NCBI GenBank assembly: GCA_965216835.1
Contig: OZ244210.1
Location: forward strand, 1,429,136 to 1,493,135
From: a bacterium
Lineage (GTDB): Bacteria; ARS69
DNA length: 64,000 nucleotides
Reading direction: 5' to 3'
In this document: piece by piece, positions 1-62,663 of the stretch
How positions within the stretch are numbered: the first letter of the stretch is position 1
How the letters are laid out: each line of letters opens with the position of its first letter
Program-made: the position numbers and the translations under genes
The notes under the pieces: generated by a model
What the model saw: the letters and a program-made list of their open reading frames with translations, nothing else
Told to the model about the DNA's origin: nothing
Database searches by the model: none

Positions 1-66
1 GACGCCGCCGGCCAGCGTCTCGAGGAGACGCTCCCGCGTGACTTCCAGTTCCGGCAGCTCGGGCAT
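1..66 (-). CDS. mutM: Formamidopyrimidine-DNA glycosylase (Fpg/Nei family), N-terminal 22 codons only; gene runs off the window start
   Basis: Reverse complement of 1-66 translates to MPELPELEVTRERLLETLAGGV, matching the conserved MPELPEVE N-terminus of Fpg/MutM. Too short for the ORF track. Confidence 0.6.
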   Translation of the reverse strand, partial: MPELPELEVTRERLLETLAGGV

Positions 67-111
67 CGTTCCTCCGTGACGGCGCGGAAGCGCGGCCGCT
101 AGGATACCACC

Positions 112-1359
112 ATGAGCGATCCCGCCCGTCCCCCGCGCACCCTGCGCTCCGCGCTCGGCGTCCTCGGACCGGGGCTCGTCGTGGCCGCGACCGGCGTGGG
201 CGCGGGGGACATGGTCGCCGCCGCCAAGGCGGGCGCCACGTTCGGGCTGCCGGTGCTCTGGGCGGCCGCCGTCGGTTCGGTGCTCAAGTTCTCGCTGGCC
301 GAGGGCATCGCCCGCTGGCAGCTGGCCACCGGCACCACGATCCTGGAGGGCTGGGCCGCGCGCTTCGGGCCGGCGCTCAAGGTCTGGTTCCTGGCCTACC
401 TCGTCCTCTGGACGATCATCGTCGCCGCGGCGCTGATGTCCGCCTGCGGCCTCGCCGCGCACGCGCTCGCTCCATCCGTGCCGCTCACGGCCTGGGCGAT
501 CGTCCACGCGCTGCTGTCGCTCTTCTTCGTGTGGCGCGAGGGATACGGCCCCTTCGAGCGCGCGATGAAGTGGGCGATCGGGGCGATGTTCGTCGCCATC
601 CTGGGCTCGGCCGCGGTCCAGGCGCCGCCGCTGACGGAGACGCTGCGCGGTCTCGTCCTTCCACGCGTGCCCGAGGGAAGCACCGTGCTCCTCGCCGGCG
701 TGATCGGCGGAGTGGGCGGCACGCTCACGCTCCTCTCCTACAACTACTGGATGCGGGAGAAGCGCTGGCGCGGCGCCGAGTGGATCACCGGCGTGCGCGT
801 CGATCTCTTCGTCGGGTACCTGCTCACGGGCCTCTTCGGCATCGCGCTCATGCTGCTGGCCGGCGTCGTGCTTCATCCCGCCGGTGTGCGCGTCACCGGC
901 TCGGACGGCGTGCTGGAGATGGCGGGGATCCTCGGCGCGAAGTTCGGCCGGCCGGGCGAGCTGGTCTTCCTGTTCGGGTTCTGGGCCGCCGTCGCCACCT
1001 CGATGCTGGGGGTGTGGCAGGGGGTTCCTTACCTGTTCGCCGACTACGTACAGCTGCTGCGGAGGCAGGAGGGTCCGGTCGATCCGCGCGGCCGCGTCTA
1101 CCGCGGCTACCTGCTGTTCCTCACCTTCCCGCCGATGCTGATTCTGGCGGCCGGCAAACCGGTGTGGGTCGTCGTCGCGTACGCGGCGGTCGGATCGCTG
1201 TTCATGCCGTTTCTGGCGGTGACGCTCCTGGTGATGAACAACTCGAAGGACATGGGAACGCTGCGGAACGGTATCGCGGCGAACGCCGGACTCGTGCTGT
1301 GCGTGCTGCTGTTCGGGACGCTGGCGGTCCGGAAGCTGATCGAGACGTTCGGAGGCTGA
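112..1359 (+). CDS. Nramp (SLC11)-related polytopic membrane transporter with non-canonical metal-site residues
   Basis: 415 aa, multiple hydrophobic helices. N-terminal region GPGLVVAATGVGAGDMVAAAKAGATFGLPVLW aligns from memory with the MntH TM1 region, but DPGN is replaced by GAGD and no MPH motif is seen. Confidence 0.7.
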   Translation: MSDPARPPRTLRSALGVLGPGLVVAATGVGAGDMVAAAKAGATFGLPVLWAAAVGSVLKFSLAEGIARWQLATGTTILEGWAARFGPALKVWFLAYLVLWTIIVAAALMSACGLAAHALAPSVPLTAWAIVHALLSLFFVWREGYGPFERAMKWAIGAMFVAILGSAAVQAPPLTETLRGLVLPRVPEGSTVLLAGVIGGVGGTLTLLSYNYWMREKRWRGAEWITGVRVDLFVGYLLTGLFGIALMLLAGVVLHPAGVRVTGSDGVLEMAGILGAKFGRPGELVFLFGFWAAVATSMLGVWQGVPYLFADYVQLLRRQEGPVDPRGRVYRGYLLFLTFPPMLILAAGKPVWVVVAYAAVGSLFMPFLAVTLLVMNNSKDMGTLRNGIAANAGLVLCVLLFGTLAVRKLIETFGG

Positions 1360-1378
1360 TCCAACGAAGGAGGCTGCG

Positions 1379-2605
1379 GTGAAGACGGGAACGGGATGGG
1401 CGACGGCGATGCTGCTGGCGTCGACGGCAGTCGTGGTTGCGGCGGGGCCGGCGGCGGCGGGGAGGTCGATGGAGGGTACGTCGTTGGAGGTCTCCGCCGA
1501 TTTCCGGCTTCGCTACGAGGCCTCCGACCGCACGCTGGTGGAGGACGGAGACTCGCGCCACGACATCTTCCAGCGATTGCAGGTCGGGCTGGAGCTGAAG
1601 AACGAGCAGGGGCTGCGCGCGATCGTCGTCGTGCAGGACGCTCGCCGGTGGGGCGAGTCCGGCACCCCCGGCGCGGACGACGAAAGTCTCGATCTCCACC
1701 GCGGATACGTCGTGCTGGACGTTCCGACCGTCCCCGGCCTGACGCTGTTTGGGGGAAGACAGGGGCTGGACTACGGCCGCGGCCACGTCCTGGCGGACTC
1801 CCCGTGGGCCAACGCCGGTCGCGCCTACGACGGTGTCCGTGCGCGTCAGCGCCTCGGGCGACATCGGCTGGACGCGGGCTACGTCCGCGTGCGCAACCGG
1901 CGAACGTGGGAGGACGCGGCGGACGAGGGATTCGCGTTCGCGGTGGGGCACGTCACGGCGGCCGGCGTGTCCGTCGAGCCGATCGTGCTCTACCGGGAGG
2001 TCCGCTCCTCGAACGACTATCTGACGGCGGGCGGCGTCCACCTGCGGGCCGCGCGCGGTCCGGTGCGGATCCTCGGCGACGCCGTTCGCCAGTGGCGCCG
2101 CTCGGTCCGGGAGGACTGGAGCGCCGATCTGCTGGCCTTCGACGCGGAGCTGGATCTGGGGGGGCGGGAGCATCCCGTGACGCTGTCCGCGGGTCTGTCC
2201 CGGCACTCCGGTCAGGATCTCGAGGACGATCGGCTTCGGTACGACCGGCTCTACGCCAAGCGCCACGCCTTCCACGGTCTGGCGGACATCGCCCTGCCGC
2301 TGGCCGACGCCGCGGGGACGGGGCTGCTCGACCTGCACGCCTCCGTCGCCGCGACGCTGGGCGGCATCGAGGTCCTGACGGCCTACTACGCCTTCCGGAC
2401 CGCCGTGGACACCTGGACGGTGGCGCCGGATCCGCCGGACGACCTGGGCCGGGAGATCGACGTTCGACTGCGCGCCGCGGCGGCGGGCCTGAGGCTGGAG
2501 TTCGGAGGGGGGGTCTTCTTTCCCGGCGACGCTCTCGCGGACTCGATCCCCGGGAGCACGGAGGACGGCCTCTTCGGCTACCTGCAGGCGGCTGCGTCGT
2601 TCTAG
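1379..2605 (+). CDS. Putative outer-membrane beta-barrel protein (secreted, C-terminal Phe)
   Basis: 408 aa with N-terminal signal peptide ([19 protein letters not shown]), alternating amphipathic beta-strand-like segments and a terminal ...AAASF. Lies 20 nt downstream of the Nramp-related gene. Confidence 0.45.
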
Positions 2606-2678
2606 GGGCCGCGCCCGTCGGTTGTCGCCTCCCGCGATCCGGGGTACCCTCCGGCTCCCAAGTGCCTGGAGCGCCAAC

Positions 2679-3974
2679 ATGTTGGACATCCGATTCGTCC
2701 GCGAGAACCCCGACGTCGTCCGCCGGGGCTGCGCGGCCAAGGGCATCGAGGCGGACGTGGACGCCGTCCTGTCCCTCGACGAGAAGCGTCGCTCGCTGCT
2801 GGTCGAGGTGGAGGAGCTACAGCGGGAGCGCAACACCCGCTCGAAGGAGATCGGGCTCAAGAAGAAGGCGGGCGAGGATGCCTCCGCCGAGGCCGCCGCC
2901 GTCCGCGACATCGGCGAGCGCATCAAGGCGATGGAGGAGGAGCGCAAGGACGTCGACGCGCGCCTCCACGATGCCCTGCTGCAGATCCCGAACCTCCCCG
3001 ACGACACCGTCCCCGCGGGGCTCACGCCCGACGACAACGTCGTGGTGCGGGAGGACGGTCCCGCCGCGCAGTTCGACTTCGAGCCGAAGCCGCACTGGGA
3101 GCTGGGCGAGTCCCTGGACATCCTGGACTTCGAGCGGGGCGTGAAGGTCACGGGCTCCGGGTTCCCGGTGTACCGGGGCCTGGGCGCGCGCCTGGAACGC
3201 GCCCTGCTGTCGTTTTTCCTCGATACGCACACGCGGTCCGGACGCTACTTGGAGATCTTTCCGCCGATCCTCGTGAACGAGGACTCGGCCACGGGCACGG
3301 GCCAGCTTCCGGACAAGGAAGACCAAATGTACGTCGCCACGCGCGATGACCTCTACCTGGTGCCCACGGCCGAGGTCCCGGTGACGAACCTGCACCGCGA
3401 CGAGATCCTCGGCGCCGAGGAGCTTCCCATCCGGTACGCCGCGTTCACGCCCAACTTCCGCCGCGAGGCGGGATCGCACGGACGCGACGTGCGCGGTCTG
3501 AACCGCGTGCATCAGTTCAACAAGGTGGAACTGGTCCAGTTCGTGGAGCCGTCCACGTCGGACGAGGCGCTGGAGGCGCTGGTGGCGGACGCGGAGAACG
3601 TGATCCGCGCGCTGGGGCTCCGGTACCGCGTGCTGCTGATGTGCGGCGGCGACATGGGGTTCACGCAGGCCAAGAAGTACGACCTGGAGGTGTGGGCGCC
3701 CGGGCAGCAGCGCTGGCTGGAGGTGAGCTCCTGCTCCAACTTCCGCGACTACCAGGCGCGGCGGATGAAGATCCGCTACCGCGGGGAGACAGGCAAGCCG
3801 GCGCTTGTGCACACGCTCAACGGGTCGGGGCTGGCCACGCCGCGGACGTTCATCGCGGTCCTGGAGACCTACCAGCGAGCCGACGGGACCGTCACGGTTC
3901 CCGAGGCGCTGCGTCCCTACCTGGGCGTCGACGTGATCGCGCCGCCCGCGCAACGAGCGGAGGCTTCGTCATGA
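2679..3974 (+). CDS. serS: Seryl-tRNA synthetase
   Basis: Start moved to the internal ATG giving [12 protein letters not shown], the typical SerS N-terminus; class II aaRS core motifs follow. The ORF-track start at 2622 is probably an upstream extension. Confidence 0.95.
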
Positions 3975-4255
3975 GTGATCCGGGCGCGGAGCGCCATCGC
4001 GCGGCGTTTGCCGGTGTCGTCCTGCTGCTGCGGCAGCTCGCCGTGCAGCTCCTGGAAACCGGCAAGACGCAGGAGGCCCGCGGGCTCATCGACGGACTCG
4101 AGGCCATCCGGGCCAAGGCCGAGGGCAACCTCGTGGAAGAGGAAGCCAAGTTCCTGAACGACGTTCTCTACGAGCTGCAGATGGCGGCCGTGCGCGGTCC
4201 CGGTGATTCCGCCGGGAGCGACGACGCCCCCGCCGATCCGCCGAGCGGGGACTGA
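3971..4255 (+). CDS. Hypothetical small protein (94 aa), translationally coupled to serS
   Basis: ATG overlaps the serS stop (ATGA) and the stop lies 2 nt before the next gene. Hydrophobic N-terminal segment, helical middle, acidic Pro-rich tail; no family recognised. Confidence 0.5.
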
Positions 4256-4257
4256 CG

Positions 4258-5991
4258 ATGTCGCCGGCTCCGCGGCGGGCCCCGGCCGTCGCCCTGCTCG
4301 CGCTGGCGCTGACGGCCGGCGCGGCGCACGCGTGGCCGTCGCTGTCCGGCGGCGGGGAAGGTCTGCTGGACGTGCGGTCCGCTCCGGTGGGCGGTCCCGG
4401 CGCGCTCGGGATCCAGATCGGTTCGTGGTCCTACCAGCACTCCGCGGGATCCGTGCCCGGCGACCGGCAGGACCGGTTCGTCTCGGACGGCGGCCTGCAC
4501 GTCACGTACGGCATCGGCGGCTGGGGCGAGGCGTACCTGCGGGGCAATCTCGCGTTCTTCGCCATCGACACGTTCAAGCCCATCTCCAACCGTGACGCGC
4601 AGGTGGGCCTGAAGGTCTCGTCGCCGCGGCGGTACGGTCCCGTCATCCCGGGGATCGTCCTGGACCTGAACCTGCCGGTCGGCAACCGGACGCGCGGCTT
4701 CTCCACGGACGCGCTGGATCCCGGCCTCACGGCGCTGTTCACCGTGCCGCTCCCGGAGTCCAACACGTTCAGCGCCGCGAACCTGCACTTCAACCTGGGT
4801 TACCGCGCGCACGGGGACGATCGGGGTCGGACGTACGAGGGCTGGCCGCTGTACTACCTGGAGCCGGTCTATCCGGAAGGCGAGAACGATCGCCTGGACC
4901 TGCGCGCGGCGGTGGAGGTGGTCTCCTCCGAGACGACGCTGTTCGGCGAGCTGCTGCTGGACCAGCTCCTCCACGAGGACATCGCGTTCTCCGAGTCGCC
5001 GATGTTCGTGAGCCTCGGGTTCCGGCGCGGGATCTCGGACCACTTCTCGCTGCTGGGCGCGACGAAGATCGCCCTCTCCTCGGACGATCCCGGCACCACG
5101 CGGTTCCGCGACGTGGAGGACCTGTTCCCGGACTGGCAGTTCGGGCTGGCGCTGGCCTGGTCGCGCGGCGGGTCGGGCGCGGACGCCGACGAGGACGGCG
5201 TGCCGGATCTGCTGGACCAGTGTCCGCATCAGCGCGAGGACCTCGACGGCTGGATGGACGAGGACGGCTGCCCCGACGCGGACAACGACGGCGACGGCGT
5301 GAAGGACGAGTTCGACGGCGATCCCGATCGTCCGGAGGACTACGACGGCTACCTGGACACCGACGGCATCCCGGACCCGGACAATGACGGCGACGGCATC
5401 CCCGACACGGAGGACGAGTGTCCGCTGGGGCCGGAGGATCTGGACGGCGTCGCGGACGAGGACGGCTGCCCGGAGACCGATGCGGACGGCGACGGCATCC
5501 CCGACGAGGGGGACTCCTGCCCGGAGGAGGCGGAGACGCTGAACGGCATCGAGGACGATGACGGCTGCCCGGAGGACGACACCAACGTCCGCACGTCGCG
5601 GCCGCTGACCCGCATCCGTTGGGAAGGTGACGCCGTTCAGCCGGAGCGGGGCGGTTTCGTGGAGCTGGGCGAGCTCGTCTCGCAGCTGCAGGCGGACCCG
5701 ACCATCCGGCTGGAGATCCGGGTGCGCACGCTGACCGCCGATGCGGACGATGCCGCGTTCGAGCTGGGGGTGCAGCGGGCCGAGTTCCTCAAGGCTTACG
5801 TGGTGGCCAGCGGCGGTGACGTCGAGCGGATCCGGGCGATCGGCGAGGCGGGGCCGGACCCGCGGACGGGCTACACGGGCTCCCGCCCGAACGAGGGGCG
5901 CGCCCGCGTGACGTGGGTGAAGTCTCCGGAAACCGAGAGCCCGGAGGAGTCGAACGCGCCGGACGATGCGGGGGCCGGGGAGGCTCCCTAG
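4258..5991 (+). CDS. OmpA-family outer-membrane protein with thrombospondin type-3-like Asp-rich repeats and a degenerate OmpA-like C-terminal domain
   Basis: Signal peptide (ALLALALTAGAAHA), N-terminal beta-rich region, then about 8 tandem DxDxDGxxDxxD-type repeats (DEDGCPDADNDGDGVKDEFDGD...), then an OmpA-like C-terminal segment. Confidence 0.8.
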   Translation: MSPAPRRAPAVALLALALTAGAAHAWPSLSGGGEGLLDVRSAPVGGPGALGIQIGSWSYQHSAGSVPGDRQDRFVSDGGLHVTYGIGGWGEAYLRGNLAFFAIDTFKPISNRDAQVGLKVSSPRRYGPVIPGIVLDLNLPVGNRTRGFSTDALDPGLTALFTVPLPESNTFSAANLHFNLGYRAHGDDRGRTYEGWPLYYLEPVYPEGENDRLDLRAAVEVVSSETTLFGELLLDQLLHEDIAFSESPMFVSLGFRRGISDHFSLLGATKIALSSDDPGTTRFRDVEDLFPDWQFGLALAWSRGGSGADADEDGVPDLLDQCPHQREDLDGWMDEDGCPDADNDGDGVKDEFDGDPDRPEDYDGYLDTDGIPDPDNDGDGIPDTEDECPLGPEDLDGVADEDGCPETDADGDGIPDEGDSCPEEAETLNGIEDDDGCPEDDTNVRTSRPLTRIRWEGDAVQPERGGFVELGELVSQLQADPTIRLEIRVRTLTADADDAAFELGVQRAEFLKAYVVASGGDVERIRAIGEAGPDPRTGYTGSRPNEGRARVTWVKSPETESPEESNAPDDAGAGEAP

Positions 5992-62173: not shown

Positions 62174-62261
62174 GGAGGGATGGCCGAGTGGTTGAAGGCG
62201 ACGGTCTTGAAAACCGTTGAGCCGCAAGGCTCCGTGGGTTCGAATCCTACTCCCTCCGCCA
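62174..62261 (+). tRNA. tRNA-Ser (anticodon TGA), class II with long variable arm
   Basis: 88 nt: acceptor GGAGGGA/TCCCTCC, anticodon loop CTTGAAA, extended variable arm, encoded CCA. Confidence 0.85.
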
Positions 62262-62298
62262 CCGCTTCGGCGGCGGAGGGCGGAGGTTCCCACGGCTC

Positions 62299-62390
62299 CC
62301 CGGATCCCGGAGAGGTGCGAGAGTGGCTGAATCGGGCCGCCTGCTAAGCGGTTGGGGAGAGAAATCTTCCTCGAGGGTTCGAATCCCTCC
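62299..62390 (+). tRNA. tRNA-Ser (anticodon GCT), class II with long variable arm
   Basis: 92 nt: acceptor GGAGAGG/CCTCTCC, anticodon loop CTGCTAA, long variable arm, encoded CCA. Confidence 0.85.
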
Positions 62391-62407
62391 CTCTCCGCCA
62401 CATCTCG

Positions 62408-62484
62408 AGGTTGTTTCGCGCCCATAGCTCAATCGGATAGAGCGTTTGGCTACGGACCAAAAGGTTGGGGGTTCGAGTCCTCCT
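62408..62484 (+). tRNA. tRNA-Arg (anticodon ACG)
   Basis: 77 nt: acceptor GCGCCCA/TGGGCGC, anticodon loop CTACGGA, T-loop TTCGAGT, encoded CCA. Confidence 0.85.
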
Positions 62485-62663
62485 GGGCGCGCCAACCTGA
62501 AGCCGTGCGGGGCCCCGCGATGCGGACGCCCCGTACCGGCTTCCCAGCGACCCGCCCCGCACGTCGTCCCGCGGGCGGATCGTTCACCCGCCGTCGCGCG
62601 CAGAGTCCCGTCCGCTCCCCCCGGAGCCGGCCGGATCGGCGCGGGGCCGCAAGGAGATGGGGA

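Follow-up and report, generated by a model that had tools for sequence, protein, structure and literature searches.

Near the start of a 64,000-nucleotide stretch of DNA from a bacterium of the ARS69 lineage (contig OZ244210.1; the whole stretch is hereafter called the window) lie two adjacent open reading frames (ORFs), ORF1 and ORF2. A first-pass annotation had described ORF1 as an Nramp-related transporter lacking the metal-binding motifs of that family and ORF2 as a candidate outer-membrane beta-barrel, and had proposed both that ORF1 resembles the Nramp relatives that carry Mg2+ and that the two proteins form a coupled system spanning both membranes. Here we find that the canonical binding site of ORF1 appears to have been replaced by a different, near-invariant one. 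The features discussed are collected in Table 1; the remaining ORFs in the interval 112..2605 are antisense or off-frame noise, as expected at a GC content of 71%.

Table 1. Features of the locus and of related loci (positions refer to the window unless another locus is named).
Feature	Coordinates	Strand	Description or basis
ORF1	112..1359	+	ATG start, 415 aa; predicted inner-membrane secondary transporter, 11 transmembrane (TM) helices, LeuT/Nramp fold
Unwound TM1 segment, T27-G-V-G-A-G-D33	190..210	+	HMMER alignments, helix break in model, conservation
Unwound TM6 segment, G199-G-V-G-G-T-L-T206	706..729	+	HMMER alignments, helix break 200-202, conservation
Intergenic spacer, 19 nt	1360..1378	+	Shine-Dalgarno AAGGAGG at 1367..1373, 5 nt before the ORF2 GTG
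ORF2	1379..2605	+	GTG start, 408 aa; predicted 18-stranded beta-barrel, Alginate_exp (AlgE-like) family
ORF2 predicted signal peptide, ~residues 1-27	1379..1459	+	N-terminal sequence
serS, seryl-tRNA synthetase	2679..3974	+	TIGR00414, 503 bits; match begins at residue 20 of a TTG-started ORF
fpg/mutM 5' end (MPELPELEVTRERL...)	1..66	-	Read from sequence; divergent from ORF1
Thrombospondin type-3 (TSP3)/OmpA protein	4258-5991	+	577 aa, signal peptide
rRNA operon	21688-27229		Complete
tRNA cluster	62174-62494	+	tRNA-Ser(tga), tRNA-Ser(gct), tRNA-Arg(acg)
trkA downstream of Nramp-like gene, locus L037	3619-4947
trkA downstream of Nramp-like gene, locus L038	7279-8607
trkA downstream of Nramp-like gene, locus L066	7320-8630
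Riboswitch, locus L010	11246-11347		Eiseniibacteriota chromosome
Nramp-related/oxoprolinase cluster, locus L092	5896-10724		Haloarcula marismortui pNG700
Nramp-related cluster, locus L091	5630-7794		Rhizobium
Nramp-related cluster, locus L093	5486-7777		Caballeronia

ORF1 is predicted to be a complete Nramp-fold protein with a replaced binding site

ORF1 matched the Pfam Nramp profile (PF01566) over residues 36-387 (113.8 bits; gathering score 29.8), and the NCBIfam model NF037982 ('Nramp_1') with 175.3 bits against a cut-off of 50. It missed the cut-offs of the MntH model PRK00701 (35.2 bits vs 430) and of TIGR01197 nramp (24.3 bits vs 272.5). An AlphaFold 2 model built from a 19-sequence alignment contained 11 long helices, with a predicted local distance difference test score (pLDDT) of 85 and a predicted TM-score (pTM) of 0.86. 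In this model TM1 is broken at residues 29-30 and TM6 at residues 200-202, coinciding with the two motifs described below. A Foldseek search with the model returned DraNramp and EleNRMT at the top (TM-scores 0.81-0.87), followed by every other Nramp structure and then by APC amino-acid transporters. Both the profile scores and the modeled fold thus place ORF1, as first annotated, within the broad Nramp superfamily defined by PF01566 and NF037982, as a full-length protein of predicted Nramp/LeuT fold.

A HMMER alignment of ORF1 to the Bacteroides fragilis Nramp (BfraNramp, PDB 10ky) pairs 'GFIDPGNWASNFAAG' with 'TGVGAGDMVAAAKAG' in the TM1 region and 'LGAVVMPHNLFLHS' with 'IGGVGGTLTLLSYN' in the TM6 region. 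In this alignment D-P-G-N of BfraNramp lies opposite G30-A31-G32-D33, with G30 replacing the metal-binding Asp and D33 the Asn, and G-A-V-V-M-P-H-N lies opposite G199-G-V-G-G-T-L-T206, so that G200 stands for the Ala, G203 for the Met, T204 for the Pro and L205 for the His of the A..MPH motif. A profile of 19 homologues gave the identical register against BfraNramp, EleNRMT, NRAT, human NRAMP1 and DraNramp. Neither DPGN nor A/C-x-x-M-P-H was recovered in ORF1 by the HMMER alignments, so the substitution of GAGD for DPGN and the lack of an MPH-type motif in TM6, both noted from the raw sequence, held up to alignment, with the helix breaks of the model at the same sites. The profile alignment also set E134 of DraNramp opposite L108 and H232 opposite L205, and the canonical proton-pathway residues of TM3 and TM9 were not found in sequence alignments, TM9 not being alignable by HMMER; the proton pathway is therefore probably lost in ORF1. 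Compared with canonical Nramp/MntH proteins (DraNramp, 8e6l; BfraNramp, the best PDB sequence match of the ORF1 profile at E 9e-16; ScaDMT, 5m95), ORF1 shares the fold, the helix breaks, the helix order and a GPG before TM1, but differs in GAGD for DPGN, G..GTL for A..MPH and the Leu opposite E134.

We assessed conservation over 120 close relatives, 236 wider distinct sequences and 80 metagenomic relatives. Across the 236 sequences conservation reaches 100% for G199, G200, G202 and G203 and 99% for T27, G28, G30, D33 and T206. Residues at 96-100% in this set are T27, G28, V29, G30, D33, K59, E64, R68, E149, G199, G200, G202, G203, T206, Y210, Y212, W213, E216, R229, D231, S297, W302, Y330 and Y357. 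In total, 87 positions are conserved at 93% or above. In the 120 best relatives (53-83% identity) the strings ATGVGAGD[LM]VAAAKAG and GGVGG[TS]LTLLSYxYW are essentially invariant, and all 80 metagenomic relatives retain G30, D33 and GGVGG. The replacement of the motifs is not an artifact of alignment, because the helix breaks of the model coincide with them and they are conserved at 99-100%. This pattern points to strong purifying selection on a new site and not to a decayed Nramp. The TM1 string T-G-V-G-A-G-D also resembles the K+ channel selectivity-filter signature TVGYGD, probably by coincidence.

ORF1 falls outside the characterized Nramp types

Three binding-site signatures have been published: DxxN-A/CxxM for canonical Nramps, DxxN-AxxT for NRAT and DxxG-TxxA/T for NRMT, the Mg2+ clade (PMC8806188). 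The GxxD-GxxG signature of ORF1 matches none of them. ORF1 carries instead the full set of features that defines its own clade, namely T-G-V-G-x-x-D, G-G-V-G-G-T/S and the invariant K59, E64, R68, E149, Y210, W213 and D231.

The comparison with EleNRMT (PDB 7qia) bears directly on the suggested analogy to Mg2+ transporters. Both proteins belong to PF01566 and have the 11-TM Nramp fold, with EleNRMT giving the best TM-score among PDB matches (0.84/0.87); both lack the TM6 Met and His and the TM3/TM9 proton-pathway residues, and in both small residues would widen the site. However, the two are only ~20% identical, D55 of EleNRMT lies opposite G30 and G58 opposite D33, and TM6 of ORF1 reads GxxG. 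Because GxxD-GxxG fails the published NRMT signature, we place ORF1 outside the Mg2+ clade, and Mg2+ transport is not implied for it; its relatives also lack a metal-homeostasis context (see below), and the analogy was given up. Membership in NRAT was likewise rejected, on the signature (GxxD-GxxG vs DxxN-AxxT) and on the host, which is bacterial and not a plant.

In Cellier's scheme PF01566 comprises Slc11, NRMT and an 'orphan outgroup', the last recognized by its substitutions: Y, N and four invariant Gly in h3, and V, Y and 228T in h6 (PMC9606685, PMC10606218). A relative that we recovered from a Haloarcula plasmid has this orphan pattern, with GPGT in TM1, TTIVGY in TM6 and G..Y..G-N..GG in TM3. 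On this plasmid, H. marismortui pNG700, the GPGT/TTIVGY-type gene stands behind a CopG regulator and is followed directly by hydantoinase/oxoprolinase A and B genes, an arrangement that parallels the bacterial ycsG/pxpT-pxpABC in archaea. Growth of Corynebacterium glutamicum and Bacillus subtilis on 5-oxoproline depends genetically on PxpT/YcsG (PMC13274462). For YcsG/MntG, Mn2+ import has been claimed as well (PMC10448178), and the protein is placed among the Nramp-related groups without canonical motifs (PMC12873925). B. subtilis YcsG/MntG and C. glutamicum PxpT probably belong to the orphan outgroup, within a 'G-motif 3' group, with the Haloarcula pNG700 protein as a likely representative.

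This is the nearest type to ORF1 outside its clade by sequence, the Haloarcula protein being 28% identical to ORF1 and the YcsG model 9a52 18%. The two types are both Nramp-related and share the change of the TM1 Asp to Gly, at least in the Haloarcula protein. They differ at three motif sites: GPGT, TTIVGY and the TM3 pattern (taken from the Haloarcula protein and Cellier's published substitutions, not from the YcsG sequence) stand against GAGD, GGVGGT and no such TM3 pattern in ORF1. They differ also in gene context, with no pxp or oxoprolinase neighbors in 160 loci of the ORF1 clade. We therefore rejected YcsG-type membership on these motifs and contexts.

A third Nramp-related type, with E-T/M-G-Q/E in TM1, was recovered from Rhizobium and Caballeronia, where it sits in a conserved cluster of a small hypothetical gene, the transporter, a second hypothetical gene and a PRC-barrel protein gene; PRC-barrel genes also occur near the Ketogulonicigenium homolog of ORF1. 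An NRMT-like protein with DDPSG was recovered as well. In a 2026 preprint on BfraNramp, a tree of ~98,000 sequences contains paraphyletic 'Nramp-related' groups without DPGN, MPH and the proton pathway, and recent phylogenies term such groups 'entirely uncharacterised'. The ORF1 clade is probably one of the 'G-motif' Nramp-related groups of PMC12873925. Its signature thus marks ORF1 as a putative further member of a catalogued, uncharacterised Nramp-related clade and not of the Mg2+ clade.

The clade is widespread and mostly encoded by stand-alone genes

A word-indexed search with ORF1 returned >3600 homologs, all in PF01566, and those that carried a name were called 'Nramp family divalent metal transporter'; a further search for the clade gave >3300 hits. 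Scanning one genome per GTDB species, we found a relative of ORF1 in 326 species. The hosts include Eisenbacteria/Eiseniibacteriota, Krumholzibacteriia, Latescibacterota, KSB1, Calditrichia, Gemmatimonadota, Acidobacteriota, Rhodothermales (among them the cultured Roseithermus sacchariphilus) and Gammaproteobacteria. A plasmid tblastn followed by a profile search added cultured Mesobacillus, Neobacillus, Peribacillus, Fictibacillus, Paracoccus, Haematobacter, Ketogulonicigenium, Brucella, Nocardioides and Rhodococcus. These cultured-host relatives are 33-50% identical to ORF1 and retain G30, D33 and GGVGG.

We surveyed gene context in 160 loci other than the window, 80 from GTDB genomes and 80 metagenomic. 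Neighboring genes are highly varied, with 105 Pfam families in 71 downstream neighbors, 64 in 72 upstream neighbors and 137 in 138 metagenomic neighbors. There is no recurrent operon partner in these loci: 102 tightly linked same-strand neighbors fell into 86 clusters, the largest with 3 members. The neighbors of ORF1 in the window's own subclade are housekeeping genes. In 11 loci checked, no Rfam riboswitch was seen next to the Nramp-like gene, and none lies near ORF1 in the window. Annotated relatives show no metal-homeostasis context, either as M-box or Mn riboswitches, for which the same 11 loci were checked, or as neighboring genes. In one Eiseniibacteriota chromosome a thiamine pyrophosphate (TPP) riboswitch lies ~4 kb downstream of the Nramp-like gene and is unrelated to the transporter.

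Catabolic operons form a distinct set of contexts. In Mesobacillus, Neobacillus and the metagenomic locus L101 the order is IclR / coenzyme A (CoA)-transferase A - B - thiolase - transporter. In Nocardioides it is SDR - acyl-CoA dehydrogenase - AMP-dependent ligase - transporter, with a 43-nt gap. In Rhodococcus it is AsnC / transporter, with an amidase gene starting at the last base of the transporter gene and genes for an FAD oxidoreductase and RidA beside them. The relatives in such operons represent three independent lineages, are 33-50% identical to ORF1 and keep its signature. In Brucella the transporter gene is divergent from PrpD/RraA/aldehyde dehydrogenase/TRAP genes. For the Peribacillus homolog we considered a sigma-54 promoter; the -24/-12 site is good but serves the neighboring divergent operon, and the candidate was set aside.

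Two contexts relate to inorganic ions. In three genomes trkA (TrkA_N + TrkA_C) follows the Nramp-like gene on the same strand at 49-78 nt, an adjacency that might point to a role in K+ homeostasis or might be lineage synteny. In Ketogulonicigenium, MgtC is encoded near the Nramp-like gene.

ORF1 may import a small organic solute

Taking fold, conservation and context together, we judge it probable that ORF1 is a working stand-alone transporter of a distinct and widespread clade, that its substrate, at a guess, is an organic solute, and that its adjacency to ORF2 reflects conserved gene order. The narrower claim, that ORF1 imports a small polar organic solute (short-chain carboxylate-type or amide-type), has in our estimate a little under an even chance. 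We favor an organic solute over an inorganic cation because in three lineages the transporter gene lies in an acyl-CoA or amidase operon. Such operons are catabolic and concern small acyl and amide compounds, so that a carrier for substrate uptake would be expected in them. The requirement for PxpT/YcsG in 5-oxoproline growth would provide a precedent inside PF01566 for an organic substrate.

In the mechanism that we propose, ORF1 would retain the 11-helix LeuT/Nramp alternating-access scaffold, with the canonical Mn2+/Fe2+-binding and proton side chains (D, N, M and H of DPGN/MPH; the TM3 Glu and Asp) all replaced. From the glycine-rich breaks of TM1 (T-G-V-G-A-G-D) and TM6 (G-G-V-G-G-T) we infer a wide pocket lined mainly by the backbone NH and C=O groups of these breaks, to which the side chains would contribute one invariant carboxylate, D33, and the hydroxyls of T27, T206, Y210 and S297. 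The substrate would sit between the two breaks, and D33 may hold a coupling H+ or Na+, or else a cationic group of the substrate. In LeuT, the backbone amides of the TM1 break G24-L25-G26-N27 bind the substrate carboxylate and N27 binds Na1; D33 of ORF1, at the position of the Nramp Asn, would be the counterpart of this Na1 ligand. The likeness to LeuT/NSS is one of strings (G24-L25-G26-N27 vs G30-A31-G32-D33), an analogy that may guide thinking on the mechanism but is not evidence for it, and there were zero NSS structures in the top 50 fold matches of ORF1.

The best-surviving alternative is that ORF1 carries a hard inorganic cation (Mg2+, Mn2+ or K+, for example) through an enlarged non-canonical site, either as an NRMT-like uniporter for hydrated Mg2+/Mn2+ or as a K+-type monovalent carrier. 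Ligands of the ion would then be D33, the hydroxyls of Thr residues and the backbone carbonyls that the Gly-rich breaks expose. We consider this a real, if minority, possibility. ORF1 belongs to PF01566 and NF037982, and its nearest solved folds are EleNRMT and DraNramp, of which EleNRMT carries hydrated Mg2+ without H+ through a widened one-Asp site (PMC8806188). YcsG/MntG, too, is reported as a Mn2+ importer despite its place in a non-canonical group (PMC10448178, PMC12873925).

Several observations that suit a cation weigh at the same time against an organic cargo. The biochemically proven substrates of PF01566 are all metal cations (Mn2+, Fe2+, Mg2+ and Al3+), and overexpression of YcsG/MntG raises cellular Mn (PMC10448178). 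Most clade members are stand-alone genes, as is frequent for ion transporters; trkA lies directly downstream in L037, L038 and L066 and MgtC is near in Ketogulonicigenium. D33 is invariant and acidic, and an invariant Asp with no invariant Arg or Lys nearby in TM1 or TM6 fits a cation better than an anion. The catabolic operons, moreover, come from 3 lineages of ~170 loci, none of them within the window's subclade. The geometry of the pocket is read from sequence and secondary structure. On the other side, the Asp kept by all characterized metal-transporting members (DxxN/DxxG) is Gly in ORF1 and the NRMT signature is not matched, no metal-regulated context was found (riboswitches in 11 loci; neighbors of the surveyed loci), and operons with CoA-transferase/thiolase, acyl-CoA ligase/dehydrogenase or amidase genes are hard to square with an ion carrier.

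ORF2 is a predicted AlgE-like channel, at best facultatively linked to ORF1

The downstream gene proved to be as first annotated, a same-strand, signal-peptide-bearing barrel ending in Phe. ORF2 matched PF13372 (Alginate_exp) with 53.2 bits against a cut-off of 25.2, ends in ...AAASF and, in an AlphaFold 2 model built from an alignment of 60 relatives, forms 18 strands with a pLDDT of 91.3. Foldseek returned AlgE entries as the best matches (E ~1e-14, best 6e-15; TM-score ~0.69), followed by Campylobacter MOMP and OprD/Occ channels. These results indicate that ORF2 is predicted to be a genuine AlgE-like, 18-strand outer-membrane channel. An exhaustive search of representative sequences found 1150 relatives, of which 9 were full length at E < 1e-30; the single weak relative returned by a word-indexed search reflects a limit of sensitivity and not true rarity.

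AlgE of Pseudomonas aeruginosa (PDB 3rbh, 5d5d) shares with ORF2 the PF13372 family, the 18 strands, the top Foldseek match and several conserved Arg positions, but the two are ~15% identical and genes for alginate biosynthesis or export are not adjacent to ORF2. No alginate or exopolysaccharide export operon context was seen in 7 barrel-bearing contigs, where the barrel gene is flanked by serS and, in 5 of them, by an Nramp-like gene. Because its neighbors are these and not alginate genes, a role in substrate-specific or general diffusion is likelier for ORF2 than the export of a polysaccharide. The pore of AlgE is Arg-lined and anion-selective. At least 90% conservation is seen in the barrel family for R43, R45, R66, R68, R89, R127, R136 and R148, and if these line the pore as in AlgE, the ORF2 channel would favor anions and not metal cations.

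We used the exhaustive search to trace the position of the barrel gene. A lineage-unique insertion, which we had considered, was dropped on finding orthologs at 30-40% identity in the same position: the barrels P0123-P0126 and P0131 are 30-39% identical to ORF2 and all lie directly upstream of serS. The barrel gene directly precedes serS in all 7 contigs, the window included, and directly follows an Nramp-like gene in 5 of them (the window, L081, L082, L083 and L085); L084 and L181 have the barrel and then serS without an Nramp-like gene. The four most syntenic relatives (L001, L012, L016 and L072) are barrel-less, with serS 166-360 nt after the Nramp-like gene. PF01149 (Fapy_DNA_glyco) occupies the fpg position in L081.

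These observations bear on the proposal of a dedicated two-membrane uptake route, with ORF2 as the outer-membrane channel and ORF1 as the inner-membrane carrier, which we regard as improbable. Both products are envelope transport proteins. Their genes lie 19 nt apart on one strand, the spacer holding a Shine-Dalgarno site and no terminator that the scan recognized, and the Nramp-like-then-barrel order recurs in L081, L082, L083 and L085 though the barrels are only 34-39% identical. However, the barrel was found in none of the 160 other loci. For the 80 GTDB loci, tblastn with ORF2 gave zero matches, a 150-sequence barrel hidden Markov model (HMM) detected only the window's own ORF2, and Pfam scans of the 71 downstream and 72 upstream neighbors gave no Alginate_exp; Pfam scans of neighbors did not reveal it in the 80 metagenomic loci. 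Among the barrel-bearing contigs, linkage to serS holds in 7/7 and linkage to the Nramp-like gene in 5/7, L084 and L181 keeping barrel-serS without the latter. The gap widens to 135-147 nt in the other barrel-bearing contigs. In a neighbor-joining tree of the Nramp-like proteins, barrel-bearing loci (the window, L083, L081/L022) and barrel-less loci (L001, L016, L012/L072) interleave in one clade. An Arg-lined pore, if as in AlgE, would also suit anions and not metal cations.

The simplest reading is an ancestral order of fpg / Nramp-like - barrel - serS - DUF1844 - TSP3/OmpA protein - mazG - alr in one narrow FCB-group lineage, from which the ORF1-type and barrel genes were lost independently, as separable genes kept together by conserved gene order. 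The pairing of ORF1 and ORF2 is thus at best a facultative arrangement of one lineage and not an obligatory two-membrane system. Co-transcription of the two genes in this genome is nevertheless plausible because of the 19-nt gap and the Shine-Dalgarno site. Scanning 1..4300 for promoters and terminators yielded nothing usable at 71% GC, and no terminator-like site between the genes. The start codons of ORF1 and fpg are 45 nt apart (67-111), so the ORF1 promoter must overlap the fpg start region; no recognizable operator was read in these 45 nt.

Farther downstream in the window, the TSP3/OmpA protein has thrombospondin type-3 repeats and an OmpA-like C-terminus. Its match to TraB, the outer-membrane exchange protein of myxobacteria, is weak and partial (60.7 bits vs a cut-off of 700). 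Its gene is kept downstream of serS-DUF1844 in L001, L012, L016, L040, L072 and L081. The rRNA operon comprises 16S, tRNA-Ile(gat), tRNA-Ala(tgc), 23S and 5S genes and accounts for a drop in GC content to 57-62% at 22-28 kb, and a cluster of three tRNA genes lies near the far end of the window.

Discussion

The weakest alternative, that ORF1 is a decayed or non-transporting Nramp relic (a pseudogene or sensor) in which loss of the motifs means loss of function, would account for the lack of all canonical ligand residues, but it is hardly credible and effectively refuted by the conservation pattern, because the replacement motifs are near-invariant over 236 sequences and 99-100% conserved across phyla, in an intact full-length frame with 87 positions conserved at 93% or more, a confident and complete predicted fold and thousands of orthologs. 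Returning to the reading that we prefer, a stand-alone transporter that may import an organic solute, its boldest form would make the thousands of genes of the GxxD/GGxGG clade encode no metal transporters but importers, driven by H+ or Na+, for small organic acids or amides (e.g. C4 keto-, hydroxy- or fatty acids), with the backbone of the Gly-rich TM1 and TM6 breaks holding the substrate, D33 serving in coupling and, in the window's lineage, an Arg-lined AlgE-like anion channel feeding the carrier; in this full form we think it unlikely.

The ORF1-ORF2 pair is itself minor and ordinary; the clade to which ORF1 belongs is large and probably mis-annotated. Databases label every member a divalent-metal (Mn2+/Fe2+) transporter, and the residues that define this activity are all missing. 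Because those residues are not present in the clade, metabolic reconstructions probably credit its hosts with Mn/Fe uptake that does not exist, in many genomes of uncultured members of the FCB group, Acidobacteriota and Gammaproteobacteria and in cultured Bacillaceae and Paracoccaceae. The clade also bears on how an amino-acid-type site of the LeuT fold was converted into a metal site. With a strict alternative signature, cultured hosts and three catabolic-operon contexts, it makes the cargo of non-canonical Nramps directly testable.

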